NCBI GenBank assembly: GCA_964408495.1
Contig: CAYOZW010000001.1
Coordinates: forward strand, 1 to 49,616
DNA length: 49,616 nucleotides
From: an uncultured Eubacteriales bacterium
Lineage (GTDB): Bacteria; Acidobacteriota; Aminicenantia; Aminicenantales; UBA8522
Direction: 5' to 3'
Shown piece by piece: positions 3,266-47,228 of this stretch. The first letter of the stretch is position 1, and every line of letters begins with the position of its first letter. A program made the translations under genes and the position numbers. The notes beneath the pieces were generated by a model. That model was not told the DNA's origin, ran no database searches, and worked only from the letters and a program-made list of their open reading frames with translations.

Positions 3266-4868
3266 AAAATACCGGGCTCTTCAACTCATCCGCATCTTCA
3301 GTCAGGCCGTTTTCTTCGGCCTCTTTTTCTATTTCTTGCTGAGGACGCATTTCAGCGGCGAAGATTATATCGGCCGGGTGGAAGTCTTTTTCCATTTCGA
3401 CCCCCTGCTCGCTATCACCACGGCCATCGCCTCGCGGGTCCTCTTCGCCTCGTTCATCCTGGCCGCGATCACCATTGTCGTCACCCTGGTCGCCGGACGG
3501 TTTGTCTGCGGCTGGGTTTGCCCGCTGGGCTCCGTCCACCAATTCTTTTCCTATATCTTTAAGAAGTCCAAGCTCCTCAAGCCGCGCAAAGAGCACCGGA
3601 GCCGAAGCCGCCTTGCCTGGAAATACCTGATCCTGATCGGCGTCCTCGTGGCCAGCCTCTTCGCCGTCGACCTGGTAGGATTCGCCGACCCCCTGTCTTT
3701 CCTCTATCGTTCGTTCGCCACCGCCGTTGTCCCGGTGCTCGCCCGTATCGGCGCGGCCTTCACGGGCCTTCTCTACGGACTGAAGCTTCCCTCTTTCGGC
3801 GATGCGGCCGCCCAGTTTTTCGGCACCCTCTCCCTCAACCAGACCTACCAGCAGGGGTTTTTCCTCGGCCTGGTCTTCCTCGGAGTCGTCCTGCTCAACA
3901 TCTCCAAGGAAAGGTTCTGGTGCCGGTACCTCTGTCCGGCCGGAGCGCTCCTCGGGCTCCTGGCCCGCTGGAACGTGCCCAAGGTGCGCATCGACATGGA
4001 GAAATGCATCGAGTGCAACCTCTGCACTCTCCACTGTCAGACCCAGGCCAACCCCTATCCAAACGAAGAGTGGCGGAGTTCGGAGTGCGTCTACTGCTAC
4101 ACCTGCGCGGCCATCTGCCCCACCAACGCCGTCCGGTTCCCGGTGAAGGCCGCACCCGAGAAGATAGAGTCCGTCAATCTTTCGCGGCGGAAGCTCATCT
4201 TCACTTCGGCGCTGGCGGTGGTCGCCGCGCCGTTCTTCAAGATCACCCCGGCCGCCAAGCGGGCCGCGGCCAAGCTCATCCGCCCGCCCGGGGCGCTCCC
4301 TGAGCCCCGTTTCCTCCAGAAGTGCGTCAAGTGCGGCGAATGCATGAAGGCCTGCCCGACCAACGCCCTGCAACCAGCCCTGAACGAAGCCGGTCCCGAA
4401 GGCATCTGGACCCCGGTCCTGAGGCCACGGATCGGCTACTGCGAGTACTACTGCTCGCTCTGCACCCAGGTCTGTCCGACCGGGGCCATCCAGGAACTGA
4501 CCATCGAGGAGAAGATCAAGGTCAAGATCGGGACGGCCTGGGTTAACAAGAGCCGCTGCATCCCCTACGTGCTGGGCTCGCCCTGCATTGTCTGCGAAGA
4601 GCACTGCCCGACATCTCCCAAGGCCATCAAGCTGGTCCGGACCGAGGTCCAGCTCATCGACGGGACGGTCCTGACCCCGCTGGCGCCGGTCATCGACCTC
4701 GACCTCTGCATCGGCTGCGGGATCTGCGAGAACAAGTGCCCGGTGGTCGACGACCCGGCTATTTTCTGCACCAGCGTCGGCGAGACGCGGTCCGAAAAGA
4801 ACCGTCTTCTGCTCGATCTCATTAAGCCGGAAACACCGCCGGGGGAGCCATCCGATCCCTATCGATAA
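3246..4868 (+). CDS. membrane-anchored polyferredoxin (NapH-like TM/CxxxCP part fused to NapG-like multi-[4Fe-4S] part)
   Basis: Several TM segments. Motifs CGWVCPLG and CRYLCPAG are NapH/MauN-like. Six CxxCxxCxxxCP-type cluster motifs follow (CIECNLCTLHC, CVYCYTCAAICP, CVKCGECMKACP, CSLCTQVCP, CIVCEEHCP, CIGCGICENKCP). LIRPPGAL resembles NapG. Overlaps the DUF362 gene by 20 nt. Confidence 0.85.
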   Translation: MKKERSKKYRALQLIRIFSQAVFFGLFFYFLLRTHFSGEDYIGRVEVFFHFDPLLAITTAIASRVLFASFILAAITIVVTLVAGRFVCGWVCPLGSVHQFFSYIFKKSKLLKPRKEHRSRSRLAWKYLILIGVLVASLFAVDLVGFADPLSFLYRSFATAVVPVLARIGAAFTGLLYGLKLPSFGDAAAQFFGTLSLNQTYQQGFFLGLVFLGVVLLNISKERFWCRYLCPAGALLGLLARWNVPKVRIDMEKCIECNLCTLHCQTQANPYPNEEWRSSECVYCYTCAAICPTNAVRFPVKAAPEKIESVNLSRRKLIFTSALAVVAAPFFKITPAAKRAAAKLIRPPGALPEPRFLQKCVKCGECMKACPTNALQPALNEAGPEGIWTPVLRPRIGYCEYYCSLCTQVCPTGAIQELTIEEKIKVKIGTAWVNKSRCIPYVLGSPCIVCEEHCPTSPKAIKLVRTEVQLIDGTVLTPLAPVIDLDLCIGCGICENKCPVVDDPAIFCTSVGETRSEKNRLLLDLIKPETPPGEPSDPYR

Positions 4869-4897
4869 GTGCCGATAATCAATTTTAAAGAAGAGCG

Positions 4898-6985: not shown

Positions 6986-8653
6986 TCAGGGTCTTTTCGG
7001 CGGTCTCGAAAGCGGCTTTCCTACCCATGGAAGCCCGCTTTTCGATTCCGCCGGGCGCGCCGGCGACGCATACCAGAACGCCGTGGCCCCCCAGACCGGG
7101 TGGCCCACTGAAATTCGCCGGACGGCTTCGAGCCCTCCCCCCATCTCCTCCTCGACGACCCGGATGCTCCGTTCAAATTGAAAGGCATCGTTCAGGTGGA
7201 AGGAATAGACCATCGGGTGACCGGGACGCAGGGTGACGAAACCGGAGACCGCCTTCCGGTCGAACTGACACCAGCCGCTGTTGAAATATTCCTCACTGCC
7301 CGTTCCATGATAGCTCGGCGGCCAACCGTCTTCGTCGGTCCAGATCAGCCAGTCGCCCTCCCCCCACCAGGTTTCATCGGGCCAGGCGACGTGCAGCATG
7401 ACTCCGACGTACTTGCCCCTGCCTCGGCGGTCCAGGACGACGTTCCCCGGGGCGTTGAGGGGTCCGAACTTCGGCACGGCTTCCGTCGCCGCTCGGTGCT
7501 CGGACCAAGTCGCATGGAACCGGCCCCAGTCGGCGGGCAGACGGTCCGATTTCTCCACCTCAAGTCGAACCCGAAGCTGAGGAAGCGTCACCGGCGACTC
7601 GTTCACGAACTCCAGAACAGCCCCCCTCGCGAACGGCATGGGGAAACAGGTGTAAGCCTCGGCTCCGCAATAACCCATGAACAGAGAAAAGAAATCGGTC
7701 CGATAGGAGGCCCGATCGGTCGGGCGCCGTCCGACGACCGCGGCGACGCTCGTCGCCTCACGACCGCCTTCCCCACAAGCGTTCCCGAAAAAATACCCCG
7801 CGGGCACGTCCACGCTCGGCCAAGCCGCCCCGTCGTAAAAAATCCGCAATCGCAACCCGAGCAAGGCTTCGGGTGTCGGAGGATCGACGAGGACGCGCAT
7901 CCGGCGGATGACCCCGCAGCCGCTCAACTGGATCATCTCTGTCTCTCCCGCTTTCAGGGACAAGGTCCGGTCGACCGAGGGCTTTTCAGAGAATGCCGGC
8001 GGAGCCGATTCGGCTTCCAGCCAGGCCTGAGAAGTCTTCTCAATTTCCGCCCGTTCGGCATCGCCCGGCGGCCAGGACAGACTCTTGACCTCGACCCCCT
8101 TGGGATAGGTCGTATACACAACTTGCCAATAGTTGCTCCAGCCGCGGGGGTTCCAATCCGGCTTCCCATAATCGGGATTGACCAGCTGAATCCGGCAGTG
8201 TTTTGAATACGGGATCGGGAACAGAGTCCCTGGGTAGCTCTTGAAAAAGACCAAAGGATAAGGGATGGGACCATGCTCGTCATCAAAATATTCAAGTATC
8301 GGCAGGTCGAAGATGGGCGTTTCGGCGCCGTCGAGATAAACCTGGATCCGTGTCCCGGCCTGCTCGGGACCGAGCCTTCCCACGAAAAGACGATGAACGC
8401 ATCCGGGGCCATCCACATCCAGGAGGATGTTCCGCCCGTCGCTTTCGATCCTTTTAAAATCGGTTCCGTCGGCGTTGGCCCCCGTCCGGTCCCAGGTGCT
8501 CGACATGGCGGTGTGGGAGGCCTCAAGCGCCGGCAGCCGGTCGAGGGATCTCATCTGCCGGAGGAACCAGCTCAGGTCCCGGACTGGTCCGCTGCTCAGC
8601 GGAATGGATCCAAGGGAAATCACCGCCGCAAACAGGGGAATCAAATGAAACAT
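6986..8653 (-). CDS. DUF2961 / glycoside hydrolase family 172-like secreted protein
   Basis: Signal peptide. SSTWDRTGANADGTDF.., GPGCVHRLF and beta-jelly-roll-like repeats are typical of DUF2961. Confidence 0.8.
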   Translation of the reverse strand: MFHLIPLFAAVISLGSIPLSSGPVRDLSWFLRQMRSLDRLPALEASHTAMSSTWDRTGANADGTDFKRIESDGRNILLDVDGPGCVHRLFVGRLGPEQAGTRIQVYLDGAETPIFDLPILEYFDDEHGPIPYPLVFFKSYPGTLFPIPYSKHCRIQLVNPDYGKPDWNPRGWSNYWQVVYTTYPKGVEVKSLSWPPGDAERAEIEKTSQAWLEAESAPPAFSEKPSVDRTLSLKAGETEMIQLSGCGVIRRMRVLVDPPTPEALLGLRLRIFYDGAAWPSVDVPAGYFFGNACGEGGREATSVAAVVGRRPTDRASYRTDFFSLFMGYCGAEAYTCFPMPFARGAVLEFVNESPVTLPQLRVRLEVEKSDRLPADWGRFHATWSEHRAATEAVPKFGPLNAPGNVVLDRRGRGKYVGVMLHVAWPDETWWGEGDWLIWTDEDGWPPSYHGTGSEEYFNSGWCQFDRKAVSGFVTLRPGHPMVYSFHLNDAFQFERSIRVVEEEMGGGLEAVRRISVGHPVWGATAFWYASPARPAESKSGLPWVGKPLSRPPKRP

Positions 8654-30552: not shown

Positions 30553-31653
30553 TCAGATCTTCATGGGCATGATCACATAAGTGTAGCTGATCGCTTCTTC
30601 GAGATCGGGTTTCATGATGGCCGCGCTGTTCTCGTCTTTGAGCTCCAGGCGGATCCTCTCGGAACTGACCGACAGCAAGAAATCGAGAAGATATTGGGAA
30701 TTGAAACCGATTTCGATGTCCGCTCCTTTGTAGTCGATTTCCAGGTCGTCACGGGCCTCGCCGATTTCCGGGTTCGACGAGAACAACTTGAGATTCCCCT
30801 TGCCGATCGAGAATTTGATTCCGCGCGACCTTTCCGTTGAGAGCAAAGAAACCCGCCGGATCGCCTGGGTGAACTCCTCTTTCGACACCTGGAGGATATG
30901 AGGATTGTCTTTGGGTATGACCGCCTCGAAATTGGGGAATTTGCTCTCTATAATCCTCGATATGAGCGTCCTGTTTCCGCCCCGGAAGAACAAATTGTTT
31001 TCGTCGGCGTCAAACTCGACTCCCTCAAGGGTCATCTTCCTGAGTTCCCCAAGCGATTTCTTGGCCACGATGACCCGGATTTCCTCGTCTATATCAAGGT
31101 TTTCAACAGATGCCGATGTATAAGAAAGACGATGACCATCTGTACTGACCAGTTCCATCGTATTCTGCTTCAGGATCATAAGAGCCCCGTTTAAGTAATA
31201 TCTTTGCTCCTGGGCTATGGCGAAATAAACACGGTCTATCATCTCCCGAAAGACATCTCCGGACAGGTTTATCTTTTTTTCAAATTTTCCCTCCGGCACC
31301 TGGGGAAAATCCTCTTTCGGCAGGCAAAGGACCTTAAACTGACTCCTCCCCGAGCTGATCTCCATCATGAGATCGTCATTTTCCTCAAAGGATATCGTCT
31401 TTTCGCCAGGAAGAGATTTGACGATTTCAAAGATCTTCTTTCCCGAGACCGTCACTGCGCCCGGCTCTTCTATGTTCGCTGAAAAATGGGTCTTCAGCCC
31501 GACCTCAAGGTCCGTTCCGGTCATTTCGACTCTATCGGCCGTCGCTTGGACCAGGATGTTGGCCAGGATCGGCATCGTATTTCTTTTTTCGACGATCCCC
31601 TGCAAAAGCTGGAGTTCGTCGAGGACGGTTTCTTTAGCTACTGAGAATTTCAT
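30553..31653 (-). CDS. dnaN: DNA polymerase III beta sliding clamp
   Basis: MKFSV.KE.L...LQ..QGIVEKRNTMPILANILV and the three-domain length (366 aa). Immediately downstream of dnaA. Confidence 0.95.
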   Translation of the reverse strand: MKFSVAKETVLDELQLLQGIVEKRNTMPILANILVQATADRVEMTGTDLEVGLKTHFSANIEEPGAVTVSGKKIFEIVKSLPGEKTISFEENDDLMMEISSGRSQFKVLCLPKEDFPQVPEGKFEKKINLSGDVFREMIDRVYFAIAQEQRYYLNGALMILKQNTMELVSTDGHRLSYTSASVENLDIDEEIRVIVAKKSLGELRKMTLEGVEFDADENNLFFRGGNRTLISRIIESKFPNFEAVIPKDNPHILQVSKEEFTQAIRRVSLLSTERSRGIKFSIGKGNLKLFSSNPEIGEARDDLEIDYKGADIEIGFNSQYLLDFLLSVSSERIRLELKDENSAAIMKPDLEEAISYTYVIMPMKI

Positions 31654-31772
31654 TTTTCCACCTTTCTCGACCTTCTCTTATATTTTCTTACTTATTTATA
31701 TGAATACTTTATTTAAGAAGAAGAAGAAAAGCAATTGGAAATGTGTATATCATCGCTAACTCATTGACCGGC
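31654..31772. promoter_or_regulatory. AT-rich dnaA-dnaN spacer: candidate DNA-unwinding element / part of oriC
   Basis: Positions 31681-31740 are 12/60 G+C by hand count. TTTTCCACC (31654-31662) is a 7/9 DnaA-box match. The dnaA-dnaN spacer hosts oriC or its DUE in many bacteria. Confidence 0.4.
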
Positions 31773-33104
31773 CTACTGGATGAGGCCGATCAGATTGTTG
31801 ATTTCTTTGTTGAATTCAGGATTCTTCCGCCGAAGCTTCTGAATTTTCCGCACGCTATGCAGAACCGTCGTGTGGTGCTTACCGCCAAACTTTTTTCCGA
31901 TTTCGGGGAGGCTGGACTTGGCCATCTCTTTGCATAGATACATGGCGATTTGCCTGGGGAAAGCGACCTTGGGAGAGTTGTTTTTCGACTTGAGCTGGGA
32001 GAGCTTGAGTTTGAACTTATGGGCGACGAGTTTTTGGATTTTTTCCACAGATATAACCGAAGCCATGGAATCGAGAAGGCTTTTCAAAGCTTCCTTGGCA
32101 ATCTCGAGGTCGACCTTCACTCCTTTCAAGGAAGAATAGGCGATGACGCGGCGGAGATAGCCTTCGAGCTCGCGGATGTTGGAGTGGACCTTATCGGCGA
32201 TGAAAAGGGCGACGCTCTCGGGGAGATCGACACCTTCGACTTCGGCCTTTTTCTTGAGAATGGCGATGCGGGTTTCGATGTCGGGAGGCTTAAGGTCGGC
32301 GATCAATCCCCACTCGAAGCGGGAACTAAAACGGTCCTCGAGCTGTGGAATTTCCTTGGGGGGGCAATCGCTTGAGATAACGATTTGTTTCTGATTCTCG
32401 TAAAGGTGGTTGAAAGTATGGAAGAATTCCTCTTTGGTCCGCTCCCGTCCAGAAAGATAATGGATGTCATCCATTAAGAGGAGGTCGATGCTCCGGTACT
32501 TCTGACGGAAATCGAGGATCTTGCCGTACTGGATGTGATTGATCAACTCGTTCATGAATTTTTCTGTGGTGACGAAAAGGATTTTCATGCGGTTATGCTT
32601 GGCCAAGGCGAAGTGGCCGATGGCGTTCATAAGGTGGGTTTTGCCGAGGCCGGCGCCCCCATAGATATAGAGGGGGTTGTAGGATTTAGCCGGATTCTTG
32701 GAGACGGCCAGGGCGGCCGCGTGGGCAAACTGGTTGCAGCCGCCGACGACAAATGTTTCAAAGCTGTAGTTGGGGTTGAGGTTAGGGCTGAGCAGCGGCC
32801 CGTGCTGGGCCCGCCTCTCCTCGGGTGAGCGGCGGATGAACGGGCTGGGCGTTTCATCGAAGATGTACTTGATATCGAAGGCCTTGCTGAAGAGACTTTC
32901 GGAAGCTTCGGAGATCACCGAGGAATAGTGAAAAGAGAGCCAGTCGCGGAAGTAAGAGTTGGGCACCTTGATGTAGAGGATATCCTTTTCCTGGCCGATG
33001 TAGAGAGTCGGGTCGAACCAGGTCTCGAAGCTGTTCTGGTCGACCTTCTTTTTGACCGTTTGAAGGATTTGCTGCCAAGCGTTAGGTTTTTCTTTATCTT
33101 GCAT
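31773..33104 (-). CDS. dnaA: chromosomal replication initiator DnaA
   Basis: Walker A GGAGLGKTHL, Walker B LLMDDIHYL, and C-terminal DNA-binding helix GGKHHTTVLHSVRKI. Confidence 0.95.
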   Translation of the reverse strand: MQDKEKPNAWQQILQTVKKKVDQNSFETWFDPTLYIGQEKDILYIKVPNSYFRDWLSFHYSSVISEASESLFSKAFDIKYIFDETPSPFIRRSPEERRAQHGPLLSPNLNPNYSFETFVVGGCNQFAHAAALAVSKNPAKSYNPLYIYGGAGLGKTHLMNAIGHFALAKHNRMKILFVTTEKFMNELINHIQYGKILDFRQKYRSIDLLLMDDIHYLSGRERTKEEFFHTFNHLYENQKQIVISSDCPPKEIPQLEDRFSSRFEWGLIADLKPPDIETRIAILKKKAEVEGVDLPESVALFIADKVHSNIRELEGYLRRVIAYSSLKGVKVDLEIAKEALKSLLDSMASVISVEKIQKLVAHKFKLKLSQLKSKNNSPKVAFPRQIAMYLCKEMAKSSLPEIGKKFGGKHHTTVLHSVRKIQKLRRKNPEFNKEINNLIGLIQ

Positions 33105-33117
33105 AGCGGCGCATTAT

Positions 33118-33149
33118 ATTTCCACAGATAAATCCACAACTGTGGAAAA
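33118..33149. promoter_or_regulatory. cluster of three DnaA-box-like 9-mers upstream of dnaA
   Basis: ATTTCCACA (33118-33126), AAATCCACA (33130-33138) and the inverted TGTGGAAAA (33141-33149, i.e. TTTTCCACA). Matches to TTATCCACA are 7/9, 7/9 and 8/9. Confidence 0.6.
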
Positions 33150-33191
33150 CCTTCCAGGTTTGTTGATGGGGCGTCCGCGAAGGCGAGGGGA

Positions 33192-33220
33192 ATGATAGCA
33201 CTCTGAAAATCCGATTTCAA
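33192..33220 (-). promoter_or_regulatory. sigma70-like promoter candidate for dnaA
   Basis: On the minus strand: TTGAAA (33220-33215), 17-nt spacer, TATCAT (33197-33192). The DnaA boxes lie between it and the dnaA start, which fits autoregulation. Confidence 0.4.
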
Positions 33221-33461
33221 GGGGGTAAAAAAAAAGGCAAAAATATAGTCTGTCTCATTCCTTTGGGCGCAAGAAACCACCCTCGGCCCCCGCACCCCGG
33301 GGAACCAGTCCCGTCGGCCCCCCCATCGGGACGCGATCTTGGAAGGGGGTCCAGGGGGATATCTCTCCCCGGCCGCAAGACGCGGCAGCGGCCGAGGAGG
33401 GGAGGCACGGAGCGAAGCGACGGTTGGAAGGGGGAAGGCGAAGAGGGGAGGGGAAAGGAAG

Positions 33462-43033: not shown

Positions 43034-43909
43034 TTAGGGGAAGACGATTGCCTCGAAAACGAAGATCTCGGCTCCCTTTTTCCAGGCATCGGGAGGCAGC
43101 CCCGCCTTTACGCATGCCTGGTTGAGAAAGGTTTCCCGTGACCAGCCGTTCTCTACCGCAACCTGGGGCAGGAGAAGCCCTCTCTGGCCGTCCCTCGCAA
43201 TGACCAAGCCGTGCTTCCCGACCTGGACGAGGCCGGGGTCATCAATTCTCTGGAGCGGCGAAAGCACGGAAACCTCGATGTCCAGGTCTTTCAATTCTTC
43301 GCTTTTGACGGGAGGGAAGCGGGGGTCTTCACTGGCCGCGTATACGGCCGAGTGGATGACTGTCTCATAGAGCGCAGCCACGGGTTCGATGAACCCGATG
43401 CAGCCGCGGAGATTCCCCTTTTTTTTGAGGGTCACGAAGACTCCCCGCTCGGCGAGCAGGTTCGGGTCCCGGGTCTGGTAGTCGATGACCTTTTTTTCGG
43501 AGACGAACGTCCGGACGGTCTCCCGGGCCAGATCAAGAAGTTCCTTCTTCTCCGCGGAAGAGAGCGAGAATACCTTGTCCGGGCCCGGTTTCAGGATGAC
43601 CGCTGCGGCGAGATAGCCGACCACCCGCGCTTCATCCCCTGAGACATCCGAAGAGTCGGAGTAGCGCAGGACTTCGACCTCCGGCTCCCCGGTCTTTTTC
43701 AGGGCGATGAGGGTCGCCGCGACCCCTCCTCCTCCGCACATGATATTTTCGCCATTGGCGCATTTGTTGAGGAGTGTGTTGGCATTGAGGCTGCGGACGA
43801 GCGAGATGGTTTCGGCGTCGGTCCGGTTGGCGTCTTTTTTAGAAAGGTAATGGGAGAGGTCGGTAGAGGCGACGATCAACACCTTTTCATCGCCGCTGCC
43901 CGACGCCAA
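43034..43909 (-). CDS. C-terminal part of Memo domain fused to AMMECR1 domain (continues the upstream ORF across an in-frame TGA)
   Basis: VLIVASTDLSHY and MCGGGG are Memo motifs. LRGCIGF..., DPRFPPV and LLLPQVA are AMMECR1 motifs. The 'start' in the ORF track is a TTG codon immediately after the TGA at 43910-43912, in the same frame. Confidence 0.75.
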   Translation of the reverse strand: MASGSGDEKVLIVASTDLSHYLSKKDANRTDAETISLVRSLNANTLLNKCANGENIMCGGGGVAATLIALKKTGEPEVEVLRYSDSSDVSGDEARVVGYLAAAVILKPGPDKVFSLSSAEKKELLDLARETVRTFVSEKKVIDYQTRDPNLLAERGVFVTLKKKGNLRGCIGFIEPVAALYETVIHSAVYAASEDPRFPPVKSEELKDLDIEVSVLSPLQRIDDPGLVQVGKHGLVIARDGQRGLLLPQVAVENGWSRETFLNQACVKAGLPPDAWKKGAEIFVFEAIVFP

Positions 43910-44473
43910 TCACTCTGCCCCCGCATCCCCATTCCTCCTGGTCGGGAAGCCCATCACGAGGGGCACGATCTTCGCTCCGGGGAGCGCTTTCTGGATGAAA
44001 GGGACCTGGACCTCGACGGAGTGCTCTTCGGCATGGGCCTGCGAGACGTAAGAAAAACCGGAAGCCTTGGCGATGCGGGCGGCGATCTCCTCATCGACAC
44101 GAGCGACACCCAGCGGGGTGGCGAACCCTCCCTTGAGGAAGATCGAACCGCCGTCGAGAGGATAGCGGTGGGAGACGCCGATGATGACCACCGTCTTGTA
44201 CGGTTGGCCCCGGACTAGGCGGTAAGCATAAGCCGCGGTCTGCCCCGAGTAAACGTATCCTGCGTGAGGGCAGATCAGGGCTCTGACTCCATCGATCGCC
44301 GCCAGCAAACCCTTGGCATTTTCGAGATAGGCATCGATCTGGGCGGACAGCCGGGCTTTATCGTTATCGTAAAAGGACCCGGCCCACACGGGCTCCCGTA
44401 CATCCTGCGCCCGCGCAGCGACGGCAGCAGAGCCGAGCGTCAACAGAAGACAGAGGCGAATCTTTTTGTTCAT
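43910..44473 (-). CDS. N-terminal part of Memo (AmmeMemoRadiSam system protein B-like) domain with Sec signal peptide
   Basis: MNKKIRLCLLLTLGSAAVAARA signal, then AGSFY, ICPHAGYVYSG and HAEEHSVEVQVPF, which are Memo metal-site motifs. Ends at the in-frame TGA. Confidence 0.75.
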   Translation of the reverse strand: MNKKIRLCLLLTLGSAAVAARAQDVREPVWAGSFYDNDKARLSAQIDAYLENAKGLLAAIDGVRALICPHAGYVYSGQTAAYAYRLVRGQPYKTVVIIGVSHRYPLDGGSIFLKGGFATPLGVARVDEEIAARIAKASGFSYVSQAHAEEHSVEVQVPFIQKALPGAKIVPLVMGFPTRRNGDAGAE

Positions 44474-44488
44474 CGTTCCCTCAAGAAA

Positions 44489-44517
44489 AATATAGCCCCC
44501 TGCCCGCCAAAAAGCAA
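44489..44517 (-). promoter_or_regulatory. sigma70-like promoter candidate for the Memo-AMMECR1 gene
   Basis: Minus strand: TTGCTT (44517-44512), 17-nt spacer, TATATT (44494-44489). GAGGGA Shine-Dalgarno before ATG 44473. Confidence 0.3.
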
Positions 44518-44609
44518 TCCTGAATACGCGAGTGCTTTTTTGTCTCGCATTTTTTCCAAGCCCTGCGGGCTCTGTGACTAATAATGCAGTTAGAATCCGG
44601 CTACGGAGG

Positions 44610-44948
44610 GATCAGTCGCAATCGGCCGCAGCGACCATTGAGGGCTCAGATGCCTTCGTTTCGCTATCATAGAATCCTTGCCATAATGTTCTTCGAGCGG
44701 GACACCCACCTCTGTTTTTTGTAACCAAGGCGAGGGGTATAGGCGAGAAGGTCATCCGGAGGCGAGCGGGCAGGGATCCGCGAAGCGGAGAGCGAGCCGA
44801 GGAAATAAGGGGATTTCCCTCGCCGGGGGAAATTCCCGGGCCTTCGAGCCTATACCCCGAGCCTCTGCGAGTTCCGCAGCCGCCGAGAAGAGCGTTGAGG
44901 AAACGGCGTTAAAAACCCGAAGGGGAGCTAGGCTGATTGCGACTGATC
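44610..44948 (+). ncRNA. candidate large structured RNA (unclassified); alternatively a palindromic DNA element
   Basis: No ORF of 60 aa or more on either strand. A 14/14-bp closing helix pairs 44610-44623 with 44935-44948. Nested helices pair 44689-44700 with 44880-44891, and 44728-44751 with 44841-44864; both contain tandem GA/AG mismatches. Apical hairpin 44809-44837. Strand inferred from G.A and G.U pairs. Confidence 0.35.
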
Positions 44949-45058
44949 AAGCTATCCCCCCTCTCCTTATCATCACGCTTTTCGTTATAGACCCAGCCTT
45001 GCGTTGACTTTTGTCGCGATTTGAGCGAAAATAAATTTGCATTGCGAGGCATTCGACG

Positions 45059-45193
45059 ATGAAAGATTTCTTCAAAACCTTACTCACCTTAGCCGCCGTC
45101 ATCACGGGCTTCTTGGTGGGGCTTCAGTGCGGCAGACAGAGGGAAAAAGCCAAGATCCCGCCTTTCCAGGAAGAGCCTGAAGAGCACATCTGA
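45059..45193 (+). CDS. possible 44-aa single-TM small protein
   Basis: ATG 45059 gives MKDFFKTLLTLAAVITGFLVGLQCGRQREKAKIPPFQEEPEEHI, ending at TGA 45191-45193. A TTGACT (45005-45010) with a weak -10 lies upstream. No clear Shine-Dalgarno; below the ORF-track size cutoff. Confidence 0.3.
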   Translation: MKDFFKTLLTLAAVITGFLVGLQCGRQREKAKIPPFQEEPEEHI

Positions 45194-45268
45194 AGTCTTC
45201 TTCTCAACTTCTAGCCGCTTCCTAGTCGCCCCCCCCGGCGACGGTCCTAACCTTCGATGAGACGGAAA

Positions 45269-45297
45269 TTGATTCTTGAGAGCTGGAAGCATATAAT
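45269..45297 (+). promoter_or_regulatory. sigma70-like promoter candidate
   Basis: TTGATT (45269-45274), 17-nt spacer, perfect TATAAT (45292-45297). AAGGA Shine-Dalgarno before ATG 45322. Confidence 0.5.
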
Positions 45298-45321
45298 AAA
45301 AATCAAGATCAAGGACAGGCC

Positions 45322-45594
45322 ATGAACTGGGGAACATACGGTATTTTGATCGTTTTCGGCGCCTTCGTCCTGCTGATGATCTTCAACCCCAGGATTTCGT
45401 GTTTTGGGAAACGCATCCGGTCGCCCTTTTATCCGCTCCTCCGAAAGAAAGGACGGAAGAGGACCGTGGTTCCGGCCGAGGATTACGGGTTCCGGCTGAC
45501 CGATGGAGAGGTCGGGAGCGCACCCGGGGGGGCCGCAGCCGGTCCGGAAAAGGCCAAGAAAACGGACGACTACGGATTCCGGCTTGACGAATAG
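45322..45594 (+). CDS. small membrane protein with duplicated DYGFRL motif
   Basis: N-terminal TM (GILIVFGAFVLLMIF), basic stretch, then EDYGFRLTD and DDYGFRLDE encoded with synonymous differences. Good promoter and Shine-Dalgarno. Confidence 0.6.
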   Translation: MNWGTYGILIVFGAFVLLMIFNPRISCFGKRIRSPFYPLLRKKGRKRTVVPAEDYGFRLTDGEVGSAPGGAAAGPEKAKKTDDYGFRLDE

Positions 45595-45636
45595 TCGGGA
45601 CTCTGTCTCGGGATGACGGGGCAAAAAGGAGGGGAG

Positions 45637-46308
45637 ATGAGGAGAAGCGCGCGAGCTGTCTCCTTGGCGGCAGCCTTGTCTCTTTTTTCCTGCTATCCAT
45701 CGCGTCCCTCTGTGGCTCCCCTCCCCGCCACCGTGAAATCGATCGAAGGCTATGCATCGCTCCGGTTGACCAGGGAAGGCAAGACGGCCAAGTCGAGGCT
45801 TTCCTTCGTCTTCTTTGTTCCCGACCGCGGACGGGTCGAAGTCATCGACCCGCTCGGACGGACGGCCTCGCTCCTCTTCCTGGTCGATGATCAGGCCTAT
45901 CTCGTTCTGCCGGGGAAGAGGGCCTATTGGAGATCGGACCGCGATGAGGTGATGTCCCGGCTGTTGGGTTTCGCTTTGAGTCCCGCGGACCTGACGGATA
46001 TCTTGACCGGACGGGCCGACCGCCTGGCCGACTGGGCCCTGGAGATGGACGGCCGGGGCCGAGTCAACCGCGGCCGCCAGGGCGCCCTTCTTTTTGAAAT
46101 CCGTCAGTTCTTCGAGCCGGGCCCTCTCCCTCAGCTCATCGTTTTCTCGAGCGAGGAGGCCAAGGGGAGTCTGAGGATCCTCCGGCTGAACTTCAATCAA
46201 TCTCTCCAGGCAGATGCTTTCCGTCTTTTTTTTCTCGAAGACGAGGCCTACCGGTCAACCACCTGGGATGAGGTCGAGCGCTGGCTTCGGGCAGAGTCCG
46301 AACGATGA
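45637..46308 (+). CDS. LolB-like outer-membrane lipoprotein
   Basis: AAGGAGG Shine-Dalgarno before ATG 45637. Lipobox LSLFSC. Block-wise resemblance to E. coli LolB (..SRLSFVFF....RVEVIDPLGRT..L.....AYLV..GKR....D.EEVM..LLG). Position directly upstream of ispE, as in lolB-ispE-prs. Confidence 0.7.
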   Translation: MRRSARAVSLAAALSLFSCYPSRPSVAPLPATVKSIEGYASLRLTREGKTAKSRLSFVFFVPDRGRVEVIDPLGRTASLLFLVDDQAYLVLPGKRAYWRSDRDEVMSRLLGFALSPADLTDILTGRADRLADWALEMDGRGRVNRGRQGALLFEIRQFFEPGPLPQLIVFSSEEAKGSLRILRLNFNQSLQADAFRLFFLEDEAYRSTTWDEVERWLRAESER

Positions 46309-47165
46309 AAGTCCGGTCCTTCGCCAAGATAAACCTGGGAACTGAAGTCCTGAAAAAGCGGCAGGATGGTTACCACGAGATAAAAACTCTTTTCCAAACG
46401 ATTGACCTGAGCGATACTCTCGAGTTCCGCCTTTTGGCCGGCCGGGAGGTCCGGCTCAGCGGGACCGATTCGACCATCCCTTGGGACGAGGGCAATCTCG
46501 TTTTCCAGGCGGCGCGACTGCTCCAGCAGTCCTTTCCGCATGCCGCCGGAGCGGAGATTCGGGTGACCAAGAAGATCCCAGCGGGCCGGGGCCTGGGCGG
46601 GGGGAGCGGCAACGCGGCCCTGGCCCTTGCGGCGTTGAATGATCTGTGGCAGATCGGGCTAAACCGTCTGGGCCTGCAGCCGTTGGCCCGCCGGCTGGGC
46701 GCCGACGTCCCCTATTTTCTGGAAGGCGGACTTTGCCTGGGGGAAGGCCGAGGAGACATGATTACGCCGCTCGACGACCTGCCTGTTCTTTACTGCGTCC
46801 TCGCCCTGCCCTCTTTTCCCATCTCGACCGCTGATATCTACGGCCGGCTGCGCTTGACTTCACCCGATAAAGACAGTAAAATTAACCGGTTTTTAGCGCG
46901 CAGAGAGTTCGGGCTATTAGAGAATAGACTCGAAGAAACCATCTTTAGCCTGTATCCTCGATTAAAAGCGATAAGGAGTTCTTTTCTTCAAAAGGAAGCC
47001 GTCCTTTCCCTCGTGAGCGGCACGGGGTCGGCGGTGTTCGGACTCTTCGAGGAGAGGGGAAAAGCTGTCCGGGCCCTCGCCGCGATGGAAACAACGGAGC
47101 AAGTGTTCATTGCGGAGACACTGCCTCGAGGGCGGTATTGGAAAAGAGCCACGGCTGGGGTGTAG
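46305..47165 (+). CDS. ispE: 4-diphosphocytidyl-2-C-methyl-D-erythritol kinase
   Basis: FAKINLG..V..KR.DGYHEI.TLFQTIDL and the GHMP motif KKIPAGRGLGGGSGNAA. Confidence 0.9.
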   Translation: MKVRSFAKINLGTEVLKKRQDGYHEIKTLFQTIDLSDTLEFRLLAGREVRLSGTDSTIPWDEGNLVFQAARLLQQSFPHAAGAEIRVTKKIPAGRGLGGGSGNAALALAALNDLWQIGLNRLGLQPLARRLGADVPYFLEGGLCLGEGRGDMITPLDDLPVLYCVLALPSFPISTADIYGRLRLTSPDKDSKINRFLARREFGLLENRLEETIFSLYPRLKAIRSSFLQKEAVLSLVSGTGSAVFGLFEERGKAVRALAAMETTEQVFIAETLPRGRYWKRATAGV

Positions 47166-47228
47166 CCAAGCGGTAAGGCAACGGACTTTGGATCCGTCAT
47201 CCGGAGGTTCGAATCCTCCCGCCCCAGT
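47157..47228 (+). tRNA. tRNA-Gln (anticodon TTG)
   Basis: Hand-folded cloverleaf. Acceptor TGGGGTG/CGCCCCA, D arm GCC-AAGCGGTAA-GGC, anticodon arm ACGGA-CTTTGGA-TCCGT, T arm GGAGG-TTCGAAT-CCTCC, discriminator G. Nearly colinear with E. coli tRNA-Gln. No encoded CCA. Confidence 0.92.

Follow-up and report, generated by a model that had tools for sequence, protein, structure and literature searches.

Several described systems bear comparison with the locus reported here. [quoted passage not shown] Repetitive extragenic palindromes (REPs) are 20–40 nucleotides (nt) long, one end being tagged with GTAG or CGTC (PMC3733652), and both REPINs and the REP-based bacterial interspersed mosaic elements (BIMEs) are mobilized by RAYT transposases of the Y1/HUH type (PMC3333891, PMC3733652). 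The IS200/IS605 insertion sequences (ISs) are “peel and paste” elements with miniature derivatives (PMC5027513, PMC6006769). Here we analyze a stretch of 49,616 nt (contig CAYOZW010000001.1 of assembly GCA_964408495.1, lineage Aminicenantales), which we call the window as a whole, and in it an element of 339 nt (44610–44948) built from nested hairpins around a core of 137 nt. The element represents a new family of the known MITE/REP/BIME-like kind and not a dedicated large RNA. It is, in our judgment, very probably a BIME-like cluster of small palindromic repeats that is specific to Candidatus Aminicenantes and sits between two conserved divergent promoters.

The core is bounded by the two arms of a helix that we call P3, and a 24-mer that fits both arms was found exactly in 25 metagenome contigs, where less than one match would be expected by chance (an expectation estimated from 4^22 and a guessed collection size). 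In these contigs the similarity spans exactly 44728–44864 and ends abruptly at AGGC... and ...GAGCCT, with unrelated flanks on either side. With a profile hidden Markov model and a covariance model (CM), both built from 13 copies, the nhmmer and CM searches recovered 28–29 distinct 5′/3′ flanks, several copies on single contigs, and further diverged copies; the window core itself scores E = 4e-39 with nhmmer and 159.9 bits with the CM. The contigs compared bear L numbers, L001 and L002 being syntenic relatives of the window and L003–L031 controls from other phyla (about 230 kb). Neither search found a family match in the controls, in L001, or in L002, where a CM match of 26.6 bits was discarded as a copy because it equals the score that true copies reach on their reverse strand and so means only “a long hairpin.” Family matches were also absent from viral contigs, an Rfam search of five repeat-bearing loci returned nothing relevant, and we found no description of such repeats in Aminicenantes in the literature. 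All copies of the family are intergenic. That the core is a dispersed, multi-copy repeat is effectively certain.

The genes beside the copies place the hosts, which are uncultured bacteria, in Candidatus Aminicenantes. A stop-free translation of the minus strand, searched against a protein database, yielded two matches, which were the source of L057–L059. One protein encoded on L057 is identical to a protein of an NCBI metagenome-assembled genome (MAG) labeled “Candidatus Aminicenantes bacterium,” a second falls into a 90% identity cluster with a protein from a MAG of that name, and the L21 protein beside another copy has relatives named Aminicenantales. The homologs of the Memo protein encoded next to the element in the window are likewise named Candidatus Aminicenantes, the closest being only 72% identical; two proteins of the window that were looked up by exact sequence had no record, and no genes are common to the window and the repeat-bearing loci from the JGI (Joint Genome Institute). 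Another palindromic repeat, unrelated to the first, sits inside the apical loop of the core at L040:3786–3945 and in L046, L053, and L057, and stands free at L038:6745–6891. The window contains 52 nt of this repeat at 33392–33443, within the spacer 33105–33461 (88% identity, E = 3e-13), which indicates that the genome of the window has the same set of repeats.

Comparison of orthologous sites revealed presence/absence and size polymorphism. The closest syntenic relative, L001, has the same gene order and lacks the element, its spacer between the start of Memo and an open reading frame (ORF) of 44 amino acids measuring 146 nt. It keeps both divergent promoter-like sites, TTGCTT-17-TATATT for Memo (beside a block homologous to 44464–44494 of the window) and TTGACA-17-GAGAAT for the operon of small ORFs, the latter reading TTGACT-17-TAAAAT in L002. 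Given the short spacer and the conserved promoters of L001, the window has an insert of about 440 nt between its two divergent promoters. In the more distant L002 the syntenic spacer is 984 nt long and filled with different palindromes of about 100 nt in inverted orientation, from which it follows that the same intergenic site was colonized independently. The two inverted copies of this other palindrome lie at L002:4203–4314 and 4782–4880, 475–573 nt apart.

A second set of orthologous sites lies upstream of rplU, whose promoter (TTATTTGACA-17-TAAATT) and upstream, tRNA-containing region are near-identical in several contigs. Directly upstream of the −35 box there is a leader plus the 137-nt core in L044, a different leader plus a 67-nt short form in L060 (L21 97% identical), only the nine bases CCCGAGCCT in L061 (95%), only CCGAGCT in L067–L070 (85%), and, in L062–L065 (89%), an IS with an rve_3 transposase that ends at the same junction. 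The rplU promoter, invariant with or without the repeat, was there beforehand and does not belong to the repeat; the comparison also assigns the T-rich leader to the variable unit and indicates that this unit was gained, lost, or replaced among close relatives. The IS, of the DDE type (L062:8885–10000, also in L063–L065; junction ..cac/TTATTTGACA), has ends unlike those of the repeat, and its position marks either an insertion hot spot or the mere edge of constrained sequence. The empty rplU sites already hold CCGAGC, the last bases of the element, and the L060 insert has CCC(C)GAGC on both sides (the 7-nt CCCGAGC), which hints that integration may take place beside, or recombination within, a CCGAGC word. 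Upstream of the core, a RAGC word occurs at 16–21 nt in about half of 28 flanks (RAGC/GGGCAC) and AGCGG in 8 of the 28 against 5% of controls; as a target signal these words are suggestive only.

The nested helices, which had been paired by hand in the preliminary description, were recovered both by a mechanical inverted-repeat search and in the minimum free energy (MFE) fold of 44600–44960, where P1, P2, P3, and P4 are all present. The search found P1, the outermost helix, complementary at 17 of 18 positions, P3 at 20 of 24 with two CGAG/CGAG mismatches, and an apical hairpin that pairs 44809–44822 with 44824–44837; a CCGC-GAA-GCGG hairpin (44777–44789) is legible straight from the sequence. 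Among the inverted repeats of the 49.6-kb window with a separation of up to 800 nt, P3 ranks second and P1 fifth. The + strand folds with −170.3 kcal/mol against −134.3 ± 6.8 for shuffled sequences (z = −5.28), the − strand with z = −3.25. CGAG occurs ten times on the + strand of 44690–44890 against a single CTCG, and the element is the densest stretch of CGAG in the window, at 9 per 200 nt over a background of 1.2. Scanning of both strands of the surrounding intergenic gap gave no ORF of at least 60 amino acids, and Rfam searches of the whole window at the gathering threshold and of 44400–45150 at E ≤ 10 returned only a tRNA and noise. The preliminary description was right in that the nested helices, which exceed chance, are real, that the gap is ORF-free, and that known RNA families do not match.

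Throughout the family the fold is kept. In the consensus structure of 24 distinct copies, 92.1% of cells are standard pairs, and compensatory changes on both sides affect 23 of 46 pairs, a result that none of 500 shuffles equaled and no slid register approached, for an alignment fitted to the model and with the same pattern being expected of a palindromic mobile element. The pair of CGAG/CGAG motifs (G.A/A.G) persists across subfamilies despite changes in the neighboring helix sequence, and G.U accounts for 57 cells against 20 for A.C. All of the 21 copies compared fold more stably on the CGAG-rich (+) strand, the mean difference being 13 kcal/mol. The fold has covariation in its support, and the choice of the + strand and the reality of the tandem G.A and G.U pairs are upheld by their conservation in other copies. 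Some single-stranded form of the CGAG-rich strand, as DNA or RNA, is under constraint.

If the constraint acts on RNA, the copies might be multi-copy functional structured RNAs that serve as stabilizers of mRNA 3′ ends, as processing sites, or as insulators that separate the end of a gene from the following promoter, the tandem sheared G.A pairs being protein-binding motifs; transcribed copies may indeed fold at the RNA level. This would suit the strand-specific fold and the conserved G.U and G.A features just described, together with the compensatory changes, as well as the placement of copies between gene ends and promoters, some of them following a co-directional gene (the L033 copy lies 26 nt past its stop) or abutting convergent stops. 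Many copies, however, including that of the window, lie between divergent promoters without a known transcript of the + strand, and one operon spacer, in L057, has copies in both orientations. Nor is there a conserved promoter or terminator, the T-tract standing before the hairpin and not after it; gain or loss between close relatives leaves the adjacent promoter intact, and Rfam families do not match. We regard functional RNAs as an improbable explanation of the family.

Outside the core the element is pieced together. When the outer parts of the window element were used as queries, only a 3′ module of 27–32 nt recurred (AACGGCGTTAAAAACC.GA..GGGAGC, 44902–44928); it stands immediately behind the core in L036, in L038 (two instances), and in L054. 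A long form of 320 nt at L038:3722–4041 has the same nested architecture with 40-nt outer arms (z = −7.35), its right arm (4002–4041) being an extension of the module and its left arm (3722–3761) an inverted, diverged copy. The P1 5′ arm of the window aligns with this left arm, sharing ..AGCGACC.., and the arm was judged by eye to be homologous to a variant module in L036; on these alignments, the best reading of P1 in the window is that two module ends in inverted orientation pair with each other. Further arrangements are a head-to-head dimer of two core-plus-module units at L036:2258–2690 and the spacer in L057, which holds three copies. The 37-nt segment behind the core (44865–44901), which supplies the 3′ partner of P2, is a gap in the aligned L038b, L036, and L038a and has no significant match in the family loci. 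For the left spacer, one weak match that also takes in P1 was obtained at L038:3314–3377 (68% over 66 nt, E = 0.014). In 185,579 genomes the 18-mer of P1 had 29 single matches, in unrelated phyla and none paired, which is chance level because about 35 are expected (from 4^17 and the collection size). What the 339 nt amount to is a mosaic of the BIME-like type and not a single designed fold.

The single structured RNA of 340 nt that had been proposed for these bases does not survive the comparison. A dedicated, single-copy noncoding RNA gene of about 340 nt, with a conformational switch, would account for the fold (z = −5.3), the nested helices, the freedom from ORFs, and the lack of an Rfam family. 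It has next to no chance of being correct: the inner 137 nt are dispersed in unrelated intergenic sites, the element is missing from L001 while L002 has other palindromes, the outer helix is accounted for by inverted repeat modules, and no promoter or terminator frames the element, promoter-like sites of the + strand lying only downstream of it and no terminator after it. The repeated words taken for alternative pairing registers are real, but they reflect repetition of modules that contain CGAG; the 3′ partner of P2 is specific to this locus, and the switch is not supported. A frame of 20–24 amino acids (M..NLGMSALPLRFLTPLRLGV) on the − strand, running over the module and the 3′ arm, was considered as well and is probably not coding, its upstream parts being unconserved. 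It occurs at L036:2624–2700, L054:2225–2320, and L038:3990–4045 and 7066–7125, with its stop in GGGGTATAGGC, and its few differences between copies are third-position transitions.

The surroundings of the copies differ between the two ends. The 5′ flanks close with CCA and are rich in T between −15 and −5; the T-tract was rejected as a terminator, since it precedes the big hairpin and the small stems upstream of it are weak (flanks inspected by eye). Past the 3′ end ...CCCCGAGCCT, a consensus-like, sigma-70-type −35/−10 pair with 16–18-nt spacing starts within 2–9 nt in 11–12 of 28–29 distinct contexts (for example, at L044:6850–6881 and in L046, L047, L053, L056, L034, L039, and L048), against 0 of 27–28 in the same test at the 5′ end, carried out to 74 nt, and 0.3–0.5% of random positions. 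In about six further copies the element borders on, or runs into, the stop codon of a convergent gene, and the orientation of neighboring genes varies among copies. Candidate reasons for the association of the 3′ end with −35 boxes are targeting, orientation-dependent tolerance, and an indirect bias of the replication strand.

The association could also mean that the family is a promoter-proximal module acting as DNA. Either targeted to or retained at the position immediately upstream of sigma-70 −35 hexamers, and in one orientation, it would serve the downstream promoter as an insulator, an architectural site, or a factor-binding site. The one-sided counts, the apical hairpin, whose 11-bp palindrome is of a type that dimeric proteins bind, and the unrelated IS whose end falls on the junction of the repeat upstream of the rplU −35 box would all agree with this. 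We nevertheless think it very improbable, given that some six copies abut convergent stop codons instead, that the distance to the −35 box ranges over 7 nt and leaves no fixed helical phase, that the window core stands 140 nt from its −35 box, and that the promoter is a conserved unit in relatives without the element. Moreover, insertions into compact intergenic regions could be obliged to stop where constrained sequence begins.

For the BIME-like cluster, we propose an assembly from four components, namely the core preceded by its leader, the locus-specific 37-nt segment, an optional 3′ module, and an inverted module remnant far to the left. P1 would result from the pairing of the two inverted modules; P3 is formed by the 24-nt terminal inverted repeats of the core. 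The units would be non-autonomous; they are without coding capacity and are gained, lost, and rearranged between close relatives. Their purine-rich strand may fold as single-stranded DNA (or RNA), and the resulting hairpin, with sheared G.A motifs beside CGAG(C) words, would be the substrate of a trans-acting enzyme, for which a recombinase of the HUH/Y1 type, or another that recognizes hairpins, appears more plausible than a classical DDE transposase. Integration may occur beside CCGAGC-like words, and at the window locus the effect on the host is some 440 extra bases between two divergent promoters. With dnaA/dnaN and the switch in GC skew about 12 kb to the left of the element, its foldable top strand is the lagging-strand template. 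This arrangement has been proposed for REP/RAYT (PMC3333891) and is described for single-strand transposition of the IS200/IS605 type (PMC5027513, PMC6006769). A bolder version of the proposal, which we consider rather unlikely, would make the family an undescribed hairpin-guided and strand-specific mobile element, its G.A motifs recognized by a single-strand-specific recombinase and its integration free of target-site duplication, at CCGAGC-like words, preferentially just upstream of −35 boxes and in one orientation. If this were true, the family would be a bacterial repeat that targets promoter edges and that may have been co-opted to insulate promoters.

Near-identical dispersed copies with target-site duplications had been named in advance as the mark of a MITE/REP element. 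The former are present, and the unit is small and noncoding (137 nt for the core, 339 nt for the composite) with 24-nt terminal inverted repeats paired at 20 of 24 positions; target-site duplications are not seen at the core boundaries in the flanks of full-length copies, inspected by eye. The window contains no transposase, reverse transcriptase, or integrase. A cognate autonomous IS was not found, in that the gene tables examined show no transposase next to any copy and the sole IS encountered in these contig fragments, that with rve_3 in L062, has unrelated ends. Integron attC sites have R″/R′ core sites (GTTRRRY), a cassette array, and a nearby intI. They were rejected as a candidate, as the ends of the family do not match and the window is without an integrase.

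Several observations weigh against the reading as a mobile, BIME-like cluster or loosen parts of it. The window holds only one copy of the core, a BLAST search with the element having found no second one there or in the first loci, and no mobilizing enzyme appeared in the window or in the gene tables beside the copies. The abutment to −35 boxes in one orientation would not be predicted of a purely selfish element, and the compensatory changes could reflect RNA function. Since the 5′ boundary of the mobile unit is uncertain and L060 has flanking CCCGAGC words, the absence of target-site duplications is less firm. The proposed origin of P1 from inverted modules is based on one analogous long form and on weak sequence similarity; no further occurrence of P1 turned up in the genome collection or the family loci, nor of the left spacer in the latter. 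The replication-strand argument, finally, is drawn from a single case.

The coordinates of the parts of the element and of its immediate surroundings are collected in Table 1.

Table 1. Parts of the 339-nt element and adjacent features, in window positions.
Feature	Position	Strand	Remarks
Intergenic gap	44474–45058		Between the Memo-like gene (−) and the conserved 44-amino-acid ORF (+)
Memo-like gene	43910–44473	−	Left neighbor of the gap
Promoter-like site of the Memo-like gene	44489–44517	−	TTGCTT-17-TATATT; left bound of the insert; conserved in L001
P1 5′ arm	44610–44627	+	Best read as a diverged inverted copy of the family 3′ module; left end of the long-form composite
Left spacer	44628–44688	+	Locus-specific, with a local hairpin; from the MFE fold
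5′ leader of the core	44689–44727	+	CGAGCGGGACAC.., T-tract, then ..CCA; holds the P2 5′ arm
Core repeat	44728–44864	+	137 nt; P3 arms 44728–44751 and 44841–44864 with two CGAG motifs each; hairpins 44777–44789 and 44809–44837
Segment between core and 3′ module	44865–44901	+	37 nt; CTGCG-AGTTC-CGCAG hairpin and P2 3′ arm
3′ module	44902–44948	+	AACGGCGTTAAAAACC.GA..GGGAGC.., then the P1 3′ arm (44931–44948)
Promoter-like site of the small-ORF/lolB/ispE operon	45004–45032	+	TTGACT-17-GAAAAT; right bound of the insert; from a promoter scan
44-amino-acid ORF, conserved	45059–45193	+	Right neighbor of the gap

The gap is set among housekeeping genes, with relA/spoT, a heptosyltransferase gene, a zinc-ribbon protein gene, and Memo-AMMECR1 on its left and two small ORFs, a lolB-like gene, ispE, tRNA-Gln, and prs on its right. 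The Memo-AMMECR1 frame (43034–44473, −) joins what are two genes in relatives and has one in-frame TGA at 43910–43912. The TGA aligns with Gly in the closest relative (ADGLAE vs. AE*LAS), which led us to reject selenocysteine and suggests either that a GGA>TGA mutation has made a pseudogene or that the sequencing is in error. On the right, the membrane-like 44-amino-acid ORF and a second ORF of 90 amino acids (45322–45594), both upstream of the lolB-like gene, have no Pfam match; L001 and L002 have size-matched ORFs at the same position, and the 44-amino-acid ORF looks similar there by eye. An overlapping ORF of 317 amino acids on the other strand (45247–46200, −) also lacks a Pfam match and is likely spurious. 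The order continues as lolB-ispE-tRNA-prs, with tRNA-Gln(UUG) at 47155–47228 overlapping the last 11 nt of the ispE ORF, by the limits of the ORF list.

Farther to the left, dnaN (30553–31653, −) and dnaA (31773–33104, −) coincide with the lowest G+C content of the window (0.465 at 31–32 kb) and with a change of sign in GC skew at about 32 kb. The DnaA-box-like words TTCCACAGA, AATCCACAA, and TGTGGAAAA lie within a stretch of 30 nt (33121–33150) upstream of dnaA, and window-wide clustering of DnaA boxes, by the E. coli consensus, was not significant. The region 30553–33461 is a probable replication origin region, and genes on both sides of it point towards it, which is unusual.

These results remove a false lead, in that a seemingly ornate RNA of 340 nt turns out to be a mosaic of repeats, and they document a family of repeats in a phylum for which metagenomes are the only source. 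The strand-specific fold of the family, its persistent G.A motifs, and its orientation-specific abutment to −35 boxes make it a reasonable test case for how hairpin repeats are recognized and where they are tolerated. The family also counsels caution to RNA-discovery pipelines and to metagenome assembly in the Aminicenantes lineage.

Against known systems, the element compares as follows. OLE, GOLLD, ROOL, and HEARO are single genes or IS-associated RNAs with conserved context. The element resembles them in size range, dense nested helices, and an ORF-free region, but it matches none of their covariance models and is a mosaic of short repeats in variable context. With IS200/IS605 (PMC5027513, PMC6006769) the family shares strand-specific folded ends, the absence of target duplication, possibly insertion beside a short fixed word (CCGAGC, as at the empty rplU site), and, in the one case that can be judged, a foldable strand on the lagging-strand template. 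IS200/IS605 elements have separate subterminal hairpins and non-inverted ends, whereas the ends of the family pair together in P3, its internal hairpins are dissimilar, the target word does not lie at a constant distance, and TnpA/TnpB were not found. The Correia and ERIC MITEs are closer. Like them, the family consists of noncoding intergenic repeats of 100–150 nt with terminal inverted repeats of about 25 nt that form one long imperfect hairpin, in many dispersed copies with insertion polymorphism between strains and frequent placement at promoters or gene ends. Unlike them, the core ends without TA or any other target duplication and has asymmetric ends, with CGAG on both arms and hence G.A/A.G mismatches, and a T-rich 5′ leader; there is no sequence similarity, the phylum is different, and a cognate IS was not found. 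From REPs the family differs in a tag-free unit of 137 nt with internal hairpins and the ends AGGCGAGGGG...CCCCGAGCCT, and no RAYT gene was seen in the window, the material being contig fragments and not whole genomes. As in REP/BIME, its extragenic palindromes are clustered as mosaics in alternating orientation (at the window locus, in L036, and in L057) and show no target duplication, and the hairpin of one strand is the presumed substrate of a single-strand-specific enzyme.

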